Under the pieces are notes generated by a model. It did not search any database. It worked only from the letters and a program-made list of their open reading frames with translations, and was not told the origin of the DNA. A stretch of 44,962 nucleotides of DNA from a virus (Duplodnaviria > Caudoviricetes): positions 1 to 44,962 of the IMG/VR virus record IMGVR_UViG_3300022822_000003; one strand, given 5' to 3'. Shown here in pieces: positions 1 through 11,164 of this stretch. Every line of letters begins with the position of its first letter. Position 1 is the first letter of the stretch. The translations under genes were made by a program, and so were the position numbers.

Positions 1-127
1 CTAAGTTAGTGGGTACACCTTTGCGCCTATTGGGTGAAGGGCTTAACGCCATAAACGAGTTCATCGCAGTGCCTGAAGAGAGAGAAGGCATAATCAGTGC
101 GGGTGCTGAGACCATCGGGCAAGTGAT
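1..127. repeat. 127-bp terminal direct repeat (copy 1), circular-assembly overlap
   Basis: Positions 1-127 are identical to 44836-44962, and the large ORF reads through the junction in frame. Confidence 0.97.
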
Positions 128-3100
128 TGGTACTAGGATTGCCCCGACTGCGATGCTGTCTGCATTCTTTAGCACCTCGGCACACCAGGAGTACGAAGCA
201 GCCAAGCGTGAAGGCGCAACTGAAATGCAGGCCACAGCGGTTGGACTACTGTCGGGCACATGGGAAGCGGGCTCCGAGTTCGCAGGAGCCCATAAGATCA
301 TGGAATTGATCCCGAAGAATATGACCAACAACCTATTAAAAGATGCAGTTGAGGTCGTCATGGCTTCGGGCATCGAGCTGCTCGAAGAGCTTGGCGCGAG
401 TTACGCTAAGCAGCTCACTCACATGGGTATCTATGACCCAGACCGCGAGTTCGACTTTGCGGGTGACATGACCGCAACCGATGCAGCTGGCATGTTCAGT
501 GGCATCGCGCTGATGAGTTCCATCGGCAAGCGTAACAGCTACATTAATCAACGCGAAGAACAAGCGCAACAGGTTGAGAACCAACGTGATGGGCTACTGA
601 GATTGCGTGAAGCGGCAGAGCAGAGCCGCACCTTTGGTCGGAACAAAGCAGCTTTCGCCGACTTTGTCGACAACGTCAACCCGGACAAAGAAGACCCCAA
701 CGTGTATGTCGACGCCGAGTCGGTGAACACGTTCTTTCAAACCAATGGCCAAGAAGCCTCTGAGATATTTGAGCAGATGGGTCTAGGCCTAGCGTTCGCT
801 GAAGCAGTGCAAGAAGGCAGCGACCTACGCGTACCTCTGTCTGCACTGGTCACAATGGAAGACACCGAACACTTCGGCGCCATGCTTGATGATGTGCGCT
901 ACAGCGTTGGCGACAATACGGCTCGCGAATTACGCGAGAAGATGGACCCGGAATCCATCAGCATTGAAGAAGAAGCGGACCGGCTGTTTAAAGAAGGCAT
1001 CGTGACAGAAGAGACGACTAACGTCGCGAACGACGCAGCCTCGCAGCTAAAAGATCAGCTCGTCAAGACGGGCCGGTTTGAGGCGGATACCGCTGAGCAG
1101 TACGCCTCTTTGCACAAAGCATTCATCACCACATTCGTTGGTCGAGGCTTTGCCACTGCGGAGCAGATGAAGCAGTATTACAACCTCGAGATCATTGACA
1201 AAGCAGGCGTGCTGCCTGATGGCGTCACCCTCAATCAATCAGAGACGACCGAGTATGAGCAGGCTGTCGCTAAAGGGCTAGACATGACAGCGCCTGCTCG
1301 CAAGCAAAGAGCCACCGACATGGGATTCGATGCAGAGACTGTTTATTACCACGGTACGGGTTCTGATATTCGAGCTTTTGAACCAGGGGCGCGAAGACCT
1401 GATAGAGATTTTACTTTTGTCACGCCAGATTTTGAAGAAGCGGAGTCCTTTGCTGAAGGTGTAGTTGGGGACAATGGAGGGAGGGAAGTGGTATACCCTC
1501 TTTATGTCAAAAAAGGAAAAACATTTGATTATGAGACCGCTAGTTCTGAAGAATTAAAATTGTTAGAAGATTATTTGAAGAAAAAAGTAAACGATGGAGG
1601 TAGAGTCTACAGTGAAGCTGTTGAAGGCCGTTGGGATGTACTTGAGGGGAGGGTGGTGCAATCTTTTCTTAAATCGAATAACTACAATTCATTTGCTACA
1701 TTAGAATCAGGTGTCAAAAACTTAGCAGTATTTAACTCAAACCAGCTTCGCAGCATCAATGCAGCCTTTGATCCCGACTTCGCGGAGAGCGCGAACGTAC
1801 TCAATCAAACCAACCAAGCTGGGCCTATCAACGCAGACGTGTCACTGACGTCCCTCGATACCTCTTTCGAGTTAGCGGGACAAACGCAGCTGCAGAATAT
1901 CAGACAGCTGAAAGAGATACTCCAACAGCGCGTAGAGGAGCAGGGGGTCGACTTGTCGGTAACCTCTCCTGAAGTTAAAGAGTTCCTGATAGAGCTAGGG
2001 CTGAAGGATGCGCTTCAAGCGTTGAAGAGCAATGAGAATGCCATTGGTTGGTATGACGTCACTGTCAGCAAAGCGTTGGCCGTACTCAGCACAATACACC
2101 CCGAGATTGCAACAGATGAGAATGCCAAGTTTGCATTCACCTTTGCCCTGGCTGTCACCTCTAATGGCTTAAAGGTTAAGAAAAACTTCGAGTTAGCTGA
2201 GCGTGTCTACAACCAATACAAACAAACTGGGTTGATGCCCACCAATGTAGAAGCAGGACAAGCTCAGAGCGCGATTAACGAGAGCCTCGCTCAATTCAAC
2301 GAGAAGTCAGCGGAGTACGGCATCGACGTCTACCGCCAATTCATGATCAGCAAATTCTCTATTGGCCAATTAGGGCAGCTAGGCTTTAAAGTTACCGGCG
2401 AGCTGGCTGGCACTGAAGTGTTCGGGGCCATGACACTCGGGCCTAAGATAGGCAACGGGTTCTTCGCGAACCTGAATGGCCACTTCGATCAGCTAACCAT
2501 TGACAGGTGGCTGATGAGAACGTGGGGCCGCTGGACCGGCACGCTGATCGAGCGTAGGCCTGACAGGGTGGAAGCTAAATCAGTTGAACTACAGAAGTAC
2601 ATTTTGCAACTGGCTAAGACGCCGACCAAGTTGGCCGAGTTCCAGAAAGCGTTGCGCATGGACTTTGACATACAGCAAACTGATAAGGTATCGAGAGGCA
2701 AGCCCGTGCTCGAGGTTAGTAACATAGAAGCGGTGGCGGTACAGATCCAGAAGATGTCTGTCTCTAAAGAAGTACGCACTATATTCGACCGCACTAAGTC
2801 TGGGGTGTCGATCCGCACCACTGGCAACTCACTTGCTAAATACATCGATGGCCAGAAAGAAGCACCTCAAAATGGAGCGGAGCGGGCTTGGATGCGCGAG
2901 GTGTTTGACGGGATACTTGTCGACATGCAAGTGGGTGGGTATGCAGACATGACTATGGCTGACCTTCAAGCACTTTTGTGGTATCCTGAAAAACGGTTAT
3001 ATGACGCTGCCAAATCTGCTGAAGACTCAGCTGAAGGGTACAGCGACGACGAGGCCCCTGATTATGCTAATGCAGCAATCGGGCTGGCTAAAGATCAAGG

Positions 3101-6100
3101 GGTAGACCCTGATGTAATTAAGAAAGCGGTATCTGATAATGAGACCAATAGACGCACAGCAGCAGCACGACGAAGCGCCGCAGCCCCAGGGCAAGAAAGC
3201 GACGAAGCAGGAACTGAAGGACTTGATGGCCGGGAACGTAAACGCTTCCTCCAAGGCAACATCCTCTGGAGACATCGATCTCGTAGGACGAGTAGCAGCA
3301 AGACACGGACTTACAAGAAAGCAAGCGCTGGAACTCTTGGAGGCCTTCGGGGGCTAGTTCACGCACCCTCTAACAATTACAACAATGTACTAAATTCTGC
3401 TGAAGCTCTGCCAGTCACGCTGGTGGAGTTAGATTCCACACCTGAATCCGCTGCACTTTTCACGCAGCAAATCCAAACCTCAAAAGATAGCGCCCTATTT
3501 GGTGCCGCTGTCTACATCTACCCGGCATCTGAGTACGAGGGGATGCGCTTATTCTTGTCTGAAGATAAAACCTCGGGCATGGCAATCAAGCCTGATGGCG
3601 ACATCGTCAGCGTGTTTACCAATGGCGGCGGCAAGGTTTACAGCATGCTGTCTCTCGCGGTTGAAATTGGGGGCACCAAGCTTGATGCCTTTGATACTGT
3701 TCTGCCAGACATCTACAACATCGGGGGCTTCACAGAAGTGGGTCGAGATTCGTGGGCAGAAGAGTACAAGCCTGACGACTGGGACAAATCGGTGTTTTCT
3801 GGGTTCAACGAGGGTGAGCCCGATATTGTTTACATGGAGTACCGGCCTGAGGAGATGGACGGCAAAACCTTCAATCAGGATAAAAGCGGGCCGAAAGGCT
3901 CGATCACTTTCCCGGCGGATGGCGTTGGCGAAAACACAACTTACATTAAACTTATGCAGGGTGCGGATCTGTCCACATTTCTCCATGAGTCGGGTCACTT
4001 CTTCCTCGAGATTGCGAAGGACCTAGGCGCACAGCCTGATGCCAAACCGCAACTCGTTGCAATGATGAAGACGCTGACTGACTGGTTCGACACCACAGAA
4101 ATAGGCGTCGAGCAGCATGAGCAGTTTGCGCGTGGGTTTGAAGCCTACCTGCGCGAAGGTAAAGCCCCGAGCGTTGAACTGCAGTCTGTGTTTGACCGTT
4201 TCATGGGCTGGCTCATTGAGATCTATAAAGAGCTCAGACAGTTAAACGTCAAGCTCAACAACGACGTGCGAGAAGTCATGGACCGCATGCTCGCCACCGA
4301 AGATGCGATCAACGAAGTGGAAGAGGTTGCCGGGTTCGGACTCATGTTCGCATCAGCTGAAGAAGCCGGTGTCTCCGAAGAAGAGTACATGGACATGAAG
4401 GTCGCAGCGGAACGTGCGCACAGCGAATCACTTGCAGACGTTCGTCAAAAGCAGATGACTGAGCTCAAGAAGGGGCAAAGCCAGGCGCTACGTGACGAAC
4501 GCAAGATGCTAAGAGAAGAGCTCACTGCCAAGCACGAAGCCGAAGCCGTCTATCAAGTGCGGCACATTCTTATGCACGGCACCTTACCCGATGGCCGAAC
4601 GCCCGTGGGGATGGAAGGGGTCAAGCTCAGTAAGCAGTGGCTCGTCGACAACATGGGCAACGCTGCGGATGCCATCTGGAAGAAGCTACCCAAGGGTAAG
4701 TATCACATGGTAAGCGCATCAGGTATGGATGTTGCACAACTCGCGTCGATGTTCGGCTATGCGTCCGGCACCGAGATGGTCAACGACCTCGCCACAGCAC
4801 CCAAGCTTGCCGATCTGGTTAAGCCACAGGTCGATGAGATCATGGCGATGCGCCACCAGTCGCTAACAGTCAAAGACAATCTAACCCAAGAAGCGATGAG
4901 AGTCGTCGCTGATAAACAACGCAAGCGCGGCATCTATGCCGAGTTGCGCGTACTAGCACGACGTGCGAGCGTCAAGCCCATCACCCAACAAGCACTGCGC
5001 GAGATCGCGAGAAGCAGAGTGGCGGCACTCAAGGTCCGCGACCTACAGCCAAACAGACATTTGCAGGCCATGCGTAAGCATTCGCAAGAAGCAACACGCG
5101 CAATGCTCGAGGGCGATGCTGGGGGTGCTTATAAGCACAAGGCTCAGCAGCTGCTGAACCTACAACTATACAGTCATACGCTTAAAGCGCGAGACCGCGT
5201 CGAGAAAGACCGCAAGTACCTGGCTAAGTTTCAAAAGCCAACAGTCCGTAAAAAGCTGGCTCGCGATTATCTGGATCAGATTGACTCGATCCTCGAGGCA
5301 GTAAGCCTAAAGCAGGGTGTGTCTAACAAAGAGTTGGACCGACGCCAGGCATTCACCGACTGGTACGATGAGCAAGTGGCCACACATGGCAGTGTCGAGA
5401 TGCCTAAAAAATACCTCGAGAAGCTGCGCACTAACTTCCGGGACATGCCGGTGCAGGACCTAATCACCCTAGTAGACAACCTACGCAACATCGAACACCT
5501 GGCCAAGCTCAAGCAGCAGATCCTAGTGGGGCGTGAGCTACGTGACTTCAACGAGACAATGGACGAGGCGCATGCAACCGCGCTCGAGGTTAACCCTCAG
5601 ATCTACTCACCAGAAGCTTATGCGAAGAAGGGTCGATTTGAAGGGTCTAACACCCTGATGGACCCGGACCTAGTAAGCAAGCTACGGGCCGAGCACATCA
5701 AGATGGAGTTCTTAGCTGAGCAGATGGACGGCGATGTCAAAGGGGGCACTTGGTGGAAGTTGTTATTCCAACCAATGGCAGAAGCTGAGAGCGCAGAGCT
5801 CAAAATGATAGAAGAGCTTGGCGCTACGCTTGGGGACATACTCTCAAGTGATACGTTCAAGCACTTGAACCGGGAAGTGACCTTCACTGCTGGAGATCAC
5901 TGGGACCGCAACATGCTGATCAGCGTCGCGCTTAACTGGGGCAACTCGGGCAACCGTATCTCGTTGACTGAAGGACTCGCAGGTAAGGGGGTTGAGGCTT
6001 TGAACATCGAGCAGTTCCTGAACAAGCACATGACCAAGAACGATTGGGATACCGTACAGCAAGTCTGGGACCTGATCGACTCCTACTGGCCAGCGATTGC

Positions 6101-7598
6101 TGCACTGCAGAAGAAGCTGACAGGTGTCGTACCTGAAAAGGTTGAACGCTCTCCCGTCGAGACGCCATTTGGAACCTACCCGGGGGGTTACTACCCACTA
6201 CACTTCGACCCCAAGAAGAACGCCAAGGTCAACGAGCGCAGCCAGAAAGCGGACGTGCTCGAGAATCTATCTGCTAACTTCATCCGACCGGCTACACGCA
6301 AAGGGCATACCAATGAGCGCGAGGGGTCAGGCGGATTGCCTGTTCAGCTAAGCGTCGACGTTATCTCTAAACACCTCGGACAAGTGATACATGACATCGC
6401 GTTTCGCGAAGCAATTATTCAGACTGACAGAGTCATCCAAGACTCGAGGACCATTGACGCGATTAAGCGAGTCGCAGGCGACAGTGTCTATGATGACATG
6501 AGACCTTGGCTTGGCAACGTAGCGGGCAGTGGCCAGATCCCCTTCGATGCAGGGTCACGCATGTGGGGCATCTTGCGAAAGAACGCCACCATCGTGAACA
6601 TGGGATTCAAGCTAACAACTGCAATCGTGCAGCCCTTAGGCCTGACGCAGACGTTTGAAGTGTTGGGGGTTAGTTGGACCCTAACAGGTGCGCAAGAGTT
6701 TTATGGCAGACCTGGACACATTAAAAAGAAAGCAGAGTGGGTAATGGAGAAGTCAGTCATGATGCGCAACCGCATGACTTCGTTCGACCGGGACATCGCT
6801 GACGCGATGCGCTCTGTCACGCAGGGCACTGGCCCCATCGACGAGATTCAGAAGTGGGCGTTCCACCATATCGGCTACATGGATTTGTCAGTTACCATGC
6901 CAACCTGGCTCGGCGCATATCGCAAATCATTGTCAGAGGGCAAGGTTGACAGCGACGCCGTGCTCGAGGCGGACAGCGTCGTGCGCATGACGCAGTCCAG
7001 TGGCAGCGCTAAAGATCTCGCTATGATCCAGCAGGGTGATGGCCGGAAGAAAATGTTCACCATGTTCTACTCGTATTTTTCTGCGATGTACAACCTGATG
7101 CGCAGGCGCAGGAACATCTCGCGCCGACAAGAAGAGATCACCCCCGCCAAAGTGGCACGCAACCTTCAGGCTTTGACTTACTTGGTTGTCATGCCGTCAG
7201 TGCTGGCTGAGTTCGTCGCGGGACGCGGACCCGATGAGGAGGAAGAGTACATGCCTTGGCTTGCTAAGCTGCTCGTCGCCTATCCTTTTATGAGTGCAGT
7301 GTATGTGAGAGACATAGCATCTGCTCTGTCCTCTGACTTCGGCTACGCGATGACCCCTCTCTCTGGTGCCATCGAGTCACTAATTGGATCGACAGAAGCG
7401 GTTGCCGGTCTTGTTGAAGACCCAGCTGACACGCTGACCAGCGAAGGGTTCGCCAAACAACTCATTATGGGTTCGGGTTACTTCCTCGGGCTACCCTCAA
7501 GGCAGGCGTGGCTTGTCACTAATAACTTGATGGACCTGATGGGGGGAGAGTCGCTGAGCTTTTCTGAGTTTATCATGCTTCAAGAGCGTCGCGACTAA
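1..7598 (+). CDS. Giant internal virion (ejection) protein, polyvalent: ART-like, HhH-GPD-like, GNAT-like and zincin (HExxH) domains. This is the 3' part; the gene starts at 44265.
   Basis: Last gene of the internal-virion block, just before the tail fibre. Motifs: YYHGT...FVT...VYPLY...AVF...FDP (1341-1775); WYD...GPKIG...TIDRW...LQALLW (2049-3003); DGDIVSVF...LDAFD..LPDIY..GF (3590-3850); ADLSTFLHESGH...HEQFARGFEAY (3960-4150). Confidence 0.9.
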   Translation, partial: KLVGTPLRLLGEGLNAINEFIAVPEEREGIISAGAETIGQVIGTRIAPTAMLSAFFSTSAHQEYEAAKREGATEMQATAVGLLSGTWEAGSEFAGAHKIMELIPKNMTNNLLKDAVEVVMASGIELLEELGASYAKQLTHMGIYDPDREFDFAGDMTATDAAGMFSGIALMSSIGKRNSYINQREEQAQQVENQRDGLLRLREAAEQSRTFGRNKAAFADFVDNVNPDKEDPNVYVDAESVNTFFQTNGQEASEIFEQMGLGLAFAEAVQEGSDLRVPLSALVTMEDTEHFGAMLDDVRYSVGDNTARELREKMDPESISIEEEADRLFKEGIVTEETTNVANDAASQLKDQLVKTGRFEADTAEQYASLHKAFITTFVGRGFATAEQMKQYYNLEIIDKAGVLPDGVTLNQSETTEYEQAVAKGLDMTAPARKQRATDMGFDAETVYYHGTGSDIRAFEPGARRPDRDFTFVTPDFEEAESFAEGVVGDNGGREVVYPLYVKKGKTFDYETASSEELKLLEDYLKKKVNDGGRVYSEAVEGRWDVLEGRVVQSFLKSNNYNSFATLESGVKNLAVFNSNQLRSINAAFDPDFAESANVLNQTNQAGPINADVSLTSLDTSFELAGQTQLQNIRQLKEILQQRVEEQGVDLSVTSPEVKEFLIELGLKDALQALKSNENAIGWYDVTVSKALAVLSTIHPEIATDENAKFAFTFALAVTSNGLKVKKNFELAERVYNQYKQTGLMPTNVEAGQAQSAINESLAQFNEKSAEYGIDVYRQFMISKFSIGQLGQLGFKVTGELAGTEVFGAMTLGPKIGNGFFANLNGHFDQLTIDRWLMRTWGRWTGTLIERRPDRVEAKSVELQKYILQLAKTPTKLAEFQKALRMDFDIQQTDKVSRGKPVLEVSNIEAVAVQIQKMSVSKEVRTIFDRTKSGVSIRTTGNSLAKYIDGQKEAPQNGAERAWMREVFDGILVDMQVGGYADMTMADLQALLWYPEKRLYDAAKSAEDSAEGYSDDEAPDYANAAIGLAKDQGVDPDVIKKAVSDNETNRRTAAARRSAAAPGQESDEAGTEGLDGRERKRFLQGNILWRHRSRRTSSSKTRTYKKASAGTLGGLRGLVHAPSNNYNNVLNSAEALPVTLVELDSTPESAALFTQQIQTSKDSALFGAAVYIYPASEYEGMRLFLSEDKTSGMAIKPDGDIVSVFTNGGGKVYSMLSLAVEIGGTKLDAFDTVLPDIYNIGGFTEVGRDSWAEEYKPDDWDKSVFSGFNEGEPDIVYMEYRPEEMDGKTFNQDKSGPKGSITFPADGVGENTTYIKLMQGADLSTFLHESGHFFLEIAKDLGAQPDAKPQLVAMMKTLTDWFDTTEIGVEQHEQFARGFEAYLREGKAPSVELQSVFDRFMGWLIEIYKELRQLNVKLNNDVREVMDRMLATEDAINEVEEVAGFGLMFASAEEAGVSEEEYMDMKVAAERAHSESLADVRQKQMTELKKGQSQALRDERKMLREELTAKHEAEAVYQVRHILMHGTLPDGRTPVGMEGVKLSKQWLVDNMGNAADAIWKKLPKGKYHMVSASGMDVAQLASMFGYASGTEMVNDLATAPKLADLVKPQVDEIMAMRHQSLTVKDNLTQEAMRVVADKQRKRGIYAELRVLARRASVKPITQQALREIARSRVAALKVRDLQPNRHLQAMRKHSQEATRAMLEGDAGGAYKHKAQQLLNLQLYSHTLKARDRVEKDRKYLAKFQKPTVRKKLARDYLDQIDSILEAVSLKQGVSNKELDRRQAFTDWYDEQVATHGSVEMPKKYLEKLRTNFRDMPVQDLITLVDNLRNIEHLAKLKQQILVGRELRDFNETMDEAHATALEVNPQIYSPEAYAKKGRFEGSNTLMDPDLVSKLRAEHIKMEFLAEQMDGDVKGGTWWKLLFQPMAEAESAELKMIEELGATLGDILSSDTFKHLNREVTFTAGDHWDRNMLISVALNWGNSGNRISLTEGLAGKGVEALNIEQFLNKHMTKNDWDTVQQVWDLIDSYWPAIAALQKKLTGVVPEKVERSPVETPFGTYPGGYYPLHFDPKKNAKVNERSQKADVLENLSANFIRPATRKGHTNEREGSGGLPVQLSVDVISKHLGQVIHDIAFREAIIQTDRVIQDSRTIDAIKRVAGDSVYDDMRPWLGNVAGSGQIPFDAGSRMWGILRKNATIVNMGFKLTTAIVQPLGLTQTFEVLGVSWTLTGAQEFYGRPGHIKKKAEWVMEKSVMMRNRMTSFDRDIADAMRSVTQGTGPIDEIQKWAFHHIGYMDLSVTMPTWLGAYRKSLSEGKVDSDAVLEADSVVRMTQSSGSAKDLAMIQQGDGRKKMFTMFYSYFSAMYNLMRRRRNISRRQEEITPAKVARNLQALTYLVVMPSVLAEFVAGRGPDEEEEYMPWLAKLLVAYPFMSAVYVRDIASALSSDFGYAMTPLSGAIESLIGSTEAVAGLVEDPADTLTSEGFAKQLIMGSGYFLGLPSRQAWLVTNNLMDLMGGESLSFSEFIMLQERRD
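3139..3357 (+). CDS. Putative nested (out-of-frame) 72-aa protein inside the giant gene
   Basis: ATG preceded by AAGCGGT at 8 nt. The C-terminus DLVGRVAARHGLTRKQALELLEAFGG is amphipathic and helix-turn-helix-like, while the host frame here is an Arg/Ser-rich low-complexity linker. Confidence 0.55.
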   Translation: MRPIDAQQQHDEAPQPQGKKATKQELKDLMAGNVNASSKATSSGDIDLVGRVAARHGLTRKQALELLEAFGG

Positions 7599-10126: not shown

Positions 10127-10417
10127 TTAATTAAGTTTAAAACGATAGCCGAACATTAGAGAGTCAAGATTCGATTCGGCACGATTGTCGAAGGGGCGAC
10201 CCACATCATATTGAGAGTAGTGAGTTATCTGTGCAAACCAGCCTGCATCAAATTCGTAGCGTAGCGCGAAGTACGCACCCACACCGCCTTGGTCTTCCCA
10301 CTCATGGCTATTTTTAAGCAACGAGCCGTTCTTGCCAGCGCCTATTTCAAGGTAGGTGTCGCCAGCTGTTGCTGACGCAGTAAATAAAAGCATTGTTATT
10401 AGTAGTATCCGTTTCAT
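10127..10417 (-). CDS. Secreted or outer-membrane beta-strand protein (96 aa) with an HxS motif
   Basis: Signal peptide ending ASATA, alternating beta-strand pattern, C-terminal GYRF, AAGGAG RBS. Confidence 0.8.
   Translation of the reverse strand: MKRILLITMLLFTASATAGDTYLEIGAGKNGSLLKNSHEWEDQGGVGAYFALRYEFDAGWFAQITHYSQYDVGRPFDNRAESNLDSLMFGYRFKLN
10288..10402. repeat. 115-bp exact direct repeat, copy 1 (copy 2 at 11032-11146)
   Basis: Identical sequence cttggtcttccc...gttattag. Confidence 0.95.
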
Positions 10418-10463: not shown

Positions 10464-10910
10464 TTATCTTTGCAATTCCCACCACTCAGAAAACCCTTGC
10501 TCTGTATTCGTCCCCGGTTGGTTATGCCACCACACGTAAAAAGATGTTGCTAGTTCCATCGCATCTTGCTTATCTATATTTCTGAGTACCCCTTCTTTTT
10601 CTGGTTGCTTGTATTCGTCAGCTATGTCGTTATTCATATCCCAATAGAATATTTCCCAGTACCCACTTAACGAATAACCCATTTTACGATAAAGTTCTCG
10701 ATAGCTTTCTGTATTCTTATCACCTCCATTTGCGTGAAACCCAGCACAAATGTTATTCAAAGAGCAATTATCCGTAAGTCGTCGAATAAACGAATCTTCT
10801 TTCCATCTAATTGTTCCATGCTTATCCCGAATAATTTCATGCTGATGATGATCTTCTGTCTTCATCATGTCAGCATAGTCTTTCGGTAATTCCGTTCTAT
10901 TTAATCGCAT
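10464..10910 (-). CDS. Hypothetical protein (AT-rich accessory gene)
   Basis: ORF with a CAGGAG RBS before ATG 10910 (MRLNRTEL). Confidence 0.75.
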   Translation of the reverse strand: MRLNRTELPKDYADMMKTEDHHQHEIIRDKHGTIRWKEDSFIRRLTDNCSLNNICAGFHANGGDKNTESYRELYRKMGYSLSGYWEIFYWDMNNDIADEYKQPEKEGVLRNIDKQDAMELATSFYVWWHNQPGTNTEQGFSEWWELQR

Positions 10911-11164
10911 TCGTTTTTTACTCCTGTTTGTGTTGTTAACTTTTGCCACCAACTAAGGCCTTTCTTTTTGATCAACCTATATCCTTTGTCTTGACAGCTC
11001 CAGCAGGGCTGCATTAACCCCGTGCTTCCATCTTGGTCTTCCCACTCATGGCTATTTTTAAGCAACGAGCCGTTCTTGCCAGCGCCTATTTCAAGGTAGG
11101 TGTCGCCAGCTGTTGCTGACGCAGTAAATAAAAGCATTGTTATTAGCAATGCCAGCTTAATCAT
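10901..11164 (-). CDS. Chimeric ORF: signal-peptide N-terminus duplicated from 10127-10417, fused to an unrelated CxxC tail (possible pseudogene)
   Basis: Shares the 115-bp repeat, then diverges into PCWSCQDKG. Confidence 0.6.
   Translation of the reverse strand: MIKLALLITMLLFTASATAGDTYLEIGAGKNGSLLKNSHEWEDQDGSTGLMQPCWSCQDKGYRLIKKKGLSWWQKLTTQTGVKNECD
11032..11146. repeat. 115-bp exact direct repeat, copy 2
   Basis: Identical to 10288-10402. Confidence 0.95.

Follow-up and report, generated by a model that had tools for sequence, protein, structure and literature searches.

We report a small gene nested out of frame inside the gene of a giant virion protein in a virus genome (Duplodnaviria; Caudoviricetes), the IMG/VR record IMGVR_UViG_3300022822_000003, whose full 44,962 nucleotides (nt) were analysed and are called the window below. 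The giant protein carries a predicted HhH-GPD DNA glycosylase-like domain followed by a predicted GNAT acetyltransferase-fold domain, and the linker between them holds, in the +1 frame, an open reading frame (ORF) of 72 amino acids (aa) that is almost certainly a real protein-coding gene, judging from how related phages have changed their codons. The two halves of its product accompany the two flanking domains separately, and we consider it somewhat likely that this product is a two-part inhibitor made from the same mRNA as the giant protein.

The first-pass annotation, made from the sequence without database searches, had placed this ORF between the two domains with an ATG and a weak Shine-Dalgarno (SD)-like AAGCGGT, and had read the unusual Arg/Ser-rich main frame as a sign that the other frame is under selection. 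Both the coordinates and the frame stand (Table 1), and over the nested ORF the main frame contains 17.6% Arg vs 5.5% in the whole protein and is poor in I, V and M. The length of the ORF is unremarkable. When the main-frame protein was held fixed and its synonymous codons were resampled 20,000 times, the +1 frame was open over all 72 codons in 45% of the resamplings (P=0.45), since a linker without I, V and M often leaves this frame open by chance; the giant gene also holds five further +1 runs of at least 70 codons. ORF length was therefore rejected as evidence for a gene.

Unlike the open frame alone, the comparative frame signal is beyond chance. Position 1 of a main-frame codon is the wobble position of the +1 frame, and we counted substitutions per site at main positions 1/2/3 in 20 phage pairs picked by rule from 115 loci with both HhH-like and GNAT domains, several of the pairs coming from one clade, so that not all are independent. 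Up to six codons before the nested start the values were 0.108/0.042/0.319. This pattern was reversed across the first 24 nested codons (0.251/0.142/0.102), became mixed through the Ser-rich middle section (0.128/0.108/0.167), was reversed again across the last 26 nested codons (0.137/0.096/0.106), and was normal once more just after the nested stop (0.088/0.117/0.296) and in the GNAT domain (0.102/0.056/0.343). The fast-changing codon position, in other words, departs from the main frame at the start codon and returns to it past the stop. The same switch was seen in 11 hand-picked close pairs (nested ORF 0.189/0.115/0.121, GNAT 0.140/0.085/0.414, upstream 0.119/0.088/0.350; Fisher p 3e-26). 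Among 17 clusters chosen by eye, identity was 32% in the +1 frame vs 25% in the main frame, with entropies of 1.29/1.04/1.36, and +1 residues such as L (16/17), T (15/17) and G (16/17) were conserved; over all 27 clusters of the first set, identity was 17.3% (+1) vs 15.5% (main).

The signals for translation are conserved in most homologous linkers as well, a point on which the first-pass reading depended. Among the 115 loci the nested start is ATG in 90 and GTG in 25, and a start lies within 15 codons of the N-terminal motif in 45 of the 49 listed representatives. The SD pairing energy at these 45 starts has a median of -5.7 vs -1.7 for 3,959 other +1 ATG/GTG codons, a comparison biased in favour of the nested gene because the best candidate start was chosen for each representative. 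Stops in the +1 frame frequently occur 1-7 codons ahead of the nested start. As in the window, L002 and L028 have an ATG 43 codons ahead of the nested stop. With its own start, stop and ribosome-binding site inside another gene, and with purifying selection on the second frame, the nested ORF is an overprinted gene as far as sequence comparison can tell. The two sequencing runs that contain the window sequence are salt-lake metagenomes; one (X1) may be the source of the window, and a contig from the second (X2) spans 2962-3550 with zero differing letters. No RNA run is among the sequencing runs listed as containing the window, which is no evidence on expression either way.

A search with the single 72-aa peptide retrieved no homologue from the word-indexed protein set and one locus from the viral contigs; relatives were obtained through the flanking domains and through profiles, using the best 80 of 439 and the best 80 of 461 viral matches. 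The profile family comprises 276 called proteins (clusters at 50% identity; E<=0.001) among 1.84 billion, and most of the 150 members listed are 46-135 aa long with the motif at the C-terminus. No family in Pfam or PHROG fits more than 1 of 22 members, the ESM Atlas gave no usable match for peptide P0003, and a plasmid search with P0113 gave no match. Profile A5 was absent from 400 genomes of one class and found in 1 of 401 of another, a known nested copy, at a sensitivity that must be low since it missed the known copy in G001. The likeness of the C-terminal half to HU/IHF, suggested in the first-pass annotation, did not hold up: Pfam Bac_DNA_binding reached 14.5 bits against a cut-off of 22.4, over 24 of 90 positions, and matched 1 of 22 family members.

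Homologues recur beside the same domains. Profile A1, built from the last 43 residues, was run against 42,282 six-frame segments, taken from the window and from the first 211 loci, part of which repeat training contigs. In the 120 loci L092-L211 it gave 68 matches of at least 12 bits in the +1 frame directly before the GNAT domain and one elsewhere, in L178, further up before the same GNAT. Of 64 non-redundant HhH linkers, 46 lead to a GNAT, and 40 of these carry the C-terminal motif; none of the other 18 does. Among 111 non-redundant GNAT loci the motif occurs in 43/49 with an HhH-like domain upstream, 24/55 with other sequence upstream and 0/7 solo or short GNATs. The N-terminal half follows the other domain, 99 of the 100 matches of its profile lying in the +1 frame right after an HhH-like domain and its motif being found in 32/49 HhH+GNAT loci vs 1/55 GNAT loci without HhH. 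An N-like ORF with an early stop was recognised by eye in L218, L281, L287, L289 and L290. The two modules form separate nested ORFs in L107 and are fused in L138, L150 and L157. In a test free of motifs, an SD-led +1 ORF of 40-120 codons ended beside the GNAT in 78 of 104 fused loci, whereas at control positions this held for 73 of 970 and in +2 for 1 of 104; 20 of the 37 fused GNATs without the motif have such an ORF beside the domain.

Whether the scaffold is a podovirus ejection protein, a MuF-position gene or another one, the C-terminal motif keeps to the GNAT. Limnohabitans phage DC33 has the same nested layout, unannotated, and in Microbacterium phage Caron an unannotated 47-aa +1 ORF (L088:3774-3917) stands just before the C-terminal GNAT of gp4, the MuF-position minor capsid gene between portal and scaffold. 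The first-pass idea that effector and small ORF move as one unit is supported in that the small gene travels with effector domains, and needs refining in that this is not one cassette: the C-terminal half goes with GNAT and the N-terminal half with the HhH-like domain. Genetic coupling of the small gene to its effector is present in these loci, with exceptions among the fused loci given below.

Further nested ORFs were noticed around these loci. The HhH-like domains of L013-L027, which have no GNAT behind them, precede another kind of acidic +1 ORF, of EIDWDLL type and situated at about +8 to +75 codons from APDYANAA; its codon phase is shifted in two of three groups, and it may possibly encode a DNA-mimic-like inhibitor. 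Other upstream domains (L044/L060, the L063 group and L113/L164; L035/L046/L048; L061/L066/L079) carry other nested N-terminal modules, alike by eye within each upstream-domain type. L178 and L180 are paralogous GNAT-bearing genes of one Terriglobales genome, with two successive motif-bearing +1 ORFs in L178 and one in L180. The AT-rich prophage genes of Gastranaerophilales type (L173-L194) include fused GNATs whose +1 ORFs are divergent, acidic and helical, with GW or YG at the end, and some loci without such an ORF.

As to timing, toxicity, inhibition and release, we infer the following course of events. The giant protein would be made late, packaged and injected, and the nested gene is likely translated from the same late mRNA. 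While virions are being assembled, its enzyme domains would be harmful to the cell that produces them or to the DNA of the phage itself. The C-terminal helix pair of the small protein would bind the GNAT domain and its N-terminal part the HhH domain, masking both, and the small protein would stay behind at packaging or ejection, so that the domains would act only in the next cell. An internal domain of a polyprotein lacks downstream space for an immunity gene, which would make the linker a suitable place for an antidote, and a linker-borne antidote would move with its domain when domains shuffle.

Several observations weigh against this two-part inhibitor. Across all 27 clusters the frame signal is weak (entropy 1.64/1.57/1.66, p 0.049), and the SD of the window itself, at -3.2 kcal/mol, is weak beside the homologue median of -5.7. 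No SD-led +1 ORF was detectable in 26 of the 104 fused GNATs, L095 has HhH and GNAT with the N-module only, and among the 18 HhH loci that lack GNAT a single one brings the N-profile to 12 bits. When loci were picked by the motif alone (71, reduced to 35 non-redundant), 21 were not nested, several of them chance matches, and the others comprised 10 nested before GNAT, three nested at a contig end and one nested without GNAT; on viral contigs, 10 of 15 were nested before GNAT. Near free-standing relatives of the peptide there is no GNAT, HhH or giant-gene remnant. Finally, adjacency alone makes neighbouring DNA travel together, and co-occurrence therefore does not show action on the neighbouring domain; the relatedness of the phages also inflates the p-values.

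The peptide could instead be a chaperone, an activator or a packaging/processing adaptor of the flanking domains, perhaps belonging as a subunit to an HhH + GNAT pair that modifies DNA and so protects incoming phage DNA; we regard this as unlikely.

The domains themselves are as first described, HhH-GPD-like upstream and GNAT-like downstream, according to their predicted folds. For the upstream model, HhH-GPD DNA glycosylases and relatives sharing this fold occupy the top 23 VIA rows, with TM1821 OGG scoring best (Z 11.2, root-mean-square deviation (rmsd) 4.4, 196 aligned), with unrelated rows at Z <=5.5; this Z is below the caution level of about 13 for helical proteins, and Foldseek gave no match at E<=0.001. 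K156 and D175 of this domain are invariant in 19 sequences and may correspond to the catalytic Lys of the hairpin and the downstream Asp of the glycosylases. The downstream model matches GNAT (VIA Z 12.3, rmsd 2.6, 129 aligned; Foldseek E 2e-4), and solo GNAT homologues in Streptomyces and Pseudomonas phages are annotated as acetyltransferase. A sequence search of the PDB found no relative of either domain.

An adaptor or subunit would show the same domain coupling as an inhibitor, and it shares the same weak complex prediction. The GNAT alignment A2 paired with A1 gave a complex score of 0.43 (best of three controls 0.01). Of 157 solved pairs 116 attain the mark, as do 2 of 215 mismatched ones, but only 18 of the solved pairs, and both mismatches, do so with a score of 0.60 or less; with at least 56% of contacts in common between runs and a partner predicted local distance difference test (pLDDT) of at least 57, the models point weakly to GNAT-peptide binding. 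A modifying pair has a precedent in phage PaMx11, where an HhH-fold amino-acid:DNA transferase is reported to act with a GNAT in a single pathway of DNA modification (PMC8989533), and PaMx11 gp46 is among the fold matches of our upstream domain (Z 7.6). Repair glycosylases score higher than gp46, however, and no kinase or 5-hydroxymethyluracil pathway gene was found among the 20 window proteins scanned. The peptide is moreover absent from solo GNAT homologues (0/7), and no nested ORF was visible by eye in those of Streptomyces phage Alvy, Pseudomonas phage Ulina01 and HATV-2; the GNAT fold therefore does not need the peptide. In HATV-2 a solo GNAT adjoins a gene annotated as endonuclease III. 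Solo GNAT genes were noticed near solo HhH/DUF7178-like genes (L089:1507-1887 and 2502-3137; L091:2381-3487), as the adjacent gp117-gp118 of HATV-2 and, by eye, as gp86 and gp81 of Alvy, so that the two enzymes may work as a pair.

Less probable still is an independent small gene, serving for instance superinfection exclusion or host interaction, for which the linker is simply free coding space and which hitch-hikes with the domains. It draws on full-length free-standing relatives: L341 (= P0091, hhalign 99.3%), L343, L330/L332, L344/L345 and L314/L317. The would-be host frame has stops in L341, L343, L330, L344 and L317, selection on the copies' own frame is modest (seven pairs, with 41 synonymous and 65 non-synonymous codon changes), and the copies stand without GNAT, so the peptide can exist without that domain. 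Their nearest nested relatives fall in different subfamilies, and their contigs are short, cellular-looking accessory DNA. L344 neighbours a DrmMI/type IIG methyltransferase and a Macro domain, L314 an EVE-HNH type IV-like nuclease, L317 an HNH gene, and L330 ARPP-1 and an addiction antidote; no defence match was found among the neighbours of L341 and L343. An unassigned neighbouring gene of about 200 aa is common to L317, L330/L332 and L344, and peptide-family genes stand in tandem in L310 (167-736) and L342 (437-971), one frame reading through both in L310 with no GNAT behind. Against a hitch-hiker, only two C-profile matches of at least 12 bits in the 42,282 segments fall outside the +1 position before GNAT (L051 and L178), and both lie before a GNAT; the motif also keeps with GNAT from scaffold to scaffold and is missing from HhH linkers where GNAT is missing.

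For the inhibitor reading, the free-standing relatives would be candidate orphan antidotes. A wider, tentative and rather doubtful version of it is a +1-frame "polyvalent antidote" layer, with one inhibitory module per effector domain, modules fused in domain order, and cells repeatedly capturing orphan copies; captured copies in defence islands would then disarm injected phage effectors.

Very improbable, in our view, is that the act of translation matters and not the product, through synthesis, pausing, mRNA stability or coupling to a shorter GNAT-led isoform. The conserved start and SD and the position of the nested stop, always shortly before GNAT, would agree with this, but specific +1 residues are conserved and free-standing copies keep the peptide, and among the 115 loci a single one has an ATG/GTG of the main frame close to the nested stop, for which reason translational coupling to a GNAT-led isoform was rejected. 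The slightest chance of all goes to a programmed frameshift that yields a shortened polyprotein ending in the peptide, or to a by-product of linker composition: composition does leave the frame open, and one database protein, P0066, joins an HhH domain to the peptide, yet the phase shift begins at the ATG/GTG, behind frequent +1 stops and with SD enrichment, and P0066, departing from the main frame well within the HhH domain, has the look of a contig error.

The virus record that makes up the window is complete and carries a terminal repeat, and its integrase, replication genes, terminase, head-tail adaptor, major head, tail tubular and internal virion proteins identify it, by gene content, as a temperate podovirus-type phage. 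The giant gene is placed behind the portal, head, tail and internal virion genes. With ART-PolyVal, an HhH fold and a GNAT fold in one chain within the virion gene block, its product is a polyvalent protein; an HExxH stretch comes after ART-PolyVal/GNAT, and the phrog_9880 match covers the long C-terminal part. Two other features of the window were noted. A 197-codon stop-free +1 run (3433-4026) crosses the GNAT and the next stretch, with no SD-led conserved feature to point to in it or in the other +1 runs of the giant gene, and two ORFs on the - strand (10127-10417 and 10901-11164) have near-identical N-terminal parts of about 45 residues with a signal-peptide-like start, a local duplication.

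Table 1. Coordinates of the nested gene, its signals and modules, and the surrounding host gene in the window.
Feature	Position	Strand	Details
Nested +1-frame gene (P0001), 72 aa	3139..3357	+	ATG 3139, TAG 3355-3357; +1 relative to ORF 3-7598
Weak SD-like site AAGCGGT	3124..3130	+	8 nt 5' of ATG; pairing energy -3.2 kcal/mol
N-terminal module of nested protein, M-x-AQ-Q-x-H-D type	3139..3210	+	goes with HhH-like domain; codon phase shifted
C-terminal module (helix, HPGLT-type turn, helix, G-F/G stop)	3277..3354	+	precedes GNAT domain
Possible second start ATG, 43-aa product with C-module only	3226..3228	+	SD -4.8
Host gene, polyvalent virion protein	3..7598, beginning 44265, across 127-nt terminal repeat	+	2,722 aa; phrog_9880
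ART-PolyVal ADP-ribosyltransferase domain of giant protein	1341..1760	+	Pfam PF18760 31.9 bits, cut-off 31.2
HhH-GPD glycosylase-like domain (predicted), DUF7178-related	1980..3110	+	model pLDDT 85, fold match; DUF7178 below cut-off
GNAT acetyltransferase-fold domain (predicted)	3360..3860	+	phrog_2563; model pLDDT 89

Giant multi-enzyme proteins are part of phage virions and take effect at injection; the relevant passages of the polyvalent-protein study (PMC5512222) do not address how the producing cell and the phage DNA withstand their synthesis. A nested, domain-coupled gene offers a testable answer to this question and points to a cognate partner of each domain, with which effectors that are otherwise hard to express could be cloned and assayed. 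The "disordered linkers" of these proteins are here dual-coding. Annotation, moreover, misses a widespread protein family of 276 clusters at 50% identity; two cultured phages carry unannotated members, and restriction-type genes neighbour free-standing copies.

The lambda spanins Rz/Rz1 are a well-known case of a +1 embedded gene whose product partners that of the host gene; Rz1 lies over a structured gene and its product belongs to a lysis complex, whereas the nested ORF described here is confined to an interdomain linker and is modular. The first-pass annotation knew of no such arrangement in podovirus ejection proteins, and our literature search, with subscription papers mostly outside its reach and supplements not covered, likewise found no account of out-of-frame nested genes in polyvalent or ejection proteins. 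Polyvalent proteins were described with ART and GNAT neighbours in one chain in (pro)phages (Iyer et al., 2017; PMC5512222), and the giant virion-linked protein of the window resembles them in having ART-PolyVal and GNAT in one chain; the main text of that study contains none of the terms "overlap", "glycosylase" and "small protein", and its passages at hand hold nothing on nested genes or self-protection. MuF toxin genes are reported to have a small candidate immunity ORF downstream in 89.4% of 191 genes (PMC5576092). They share with our case a temperate phage, a virion-linked effector and a small adjacent ORF, and Caron gp4 even combines the MuF position with a GNAT at its end, but here the small ORF is upstream of the domain, wholly inside the gene and in another frame. 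The HNH gene known as the ShiLan domain, which sits out of frame within a phage methylase, is likewise a complete other-frame gene that its host gene reads through as a loop (PMC11855218). ShiLan is reported to be a selfish homing endonuclease, however, and the window peptide has no nuclease motif and tracks specific effector domains. Rpn toxins are reported to be blocked by intragenic antitoxins, small proteins made from an internal start within the larger protein's gene (PMC10327210). The Rpn antitoxin is an in-frame C-terminal fragment of its toxin, whereas the peptide of the window is read in the +1 frame, ends before the GNAT, is unrelated in sequence to its host protein, lies between two domains and is phage-encoded, and its inhibition of them would be the feature in common. 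What is new here is the coupling of a nested gene to the specific domains that flank it.

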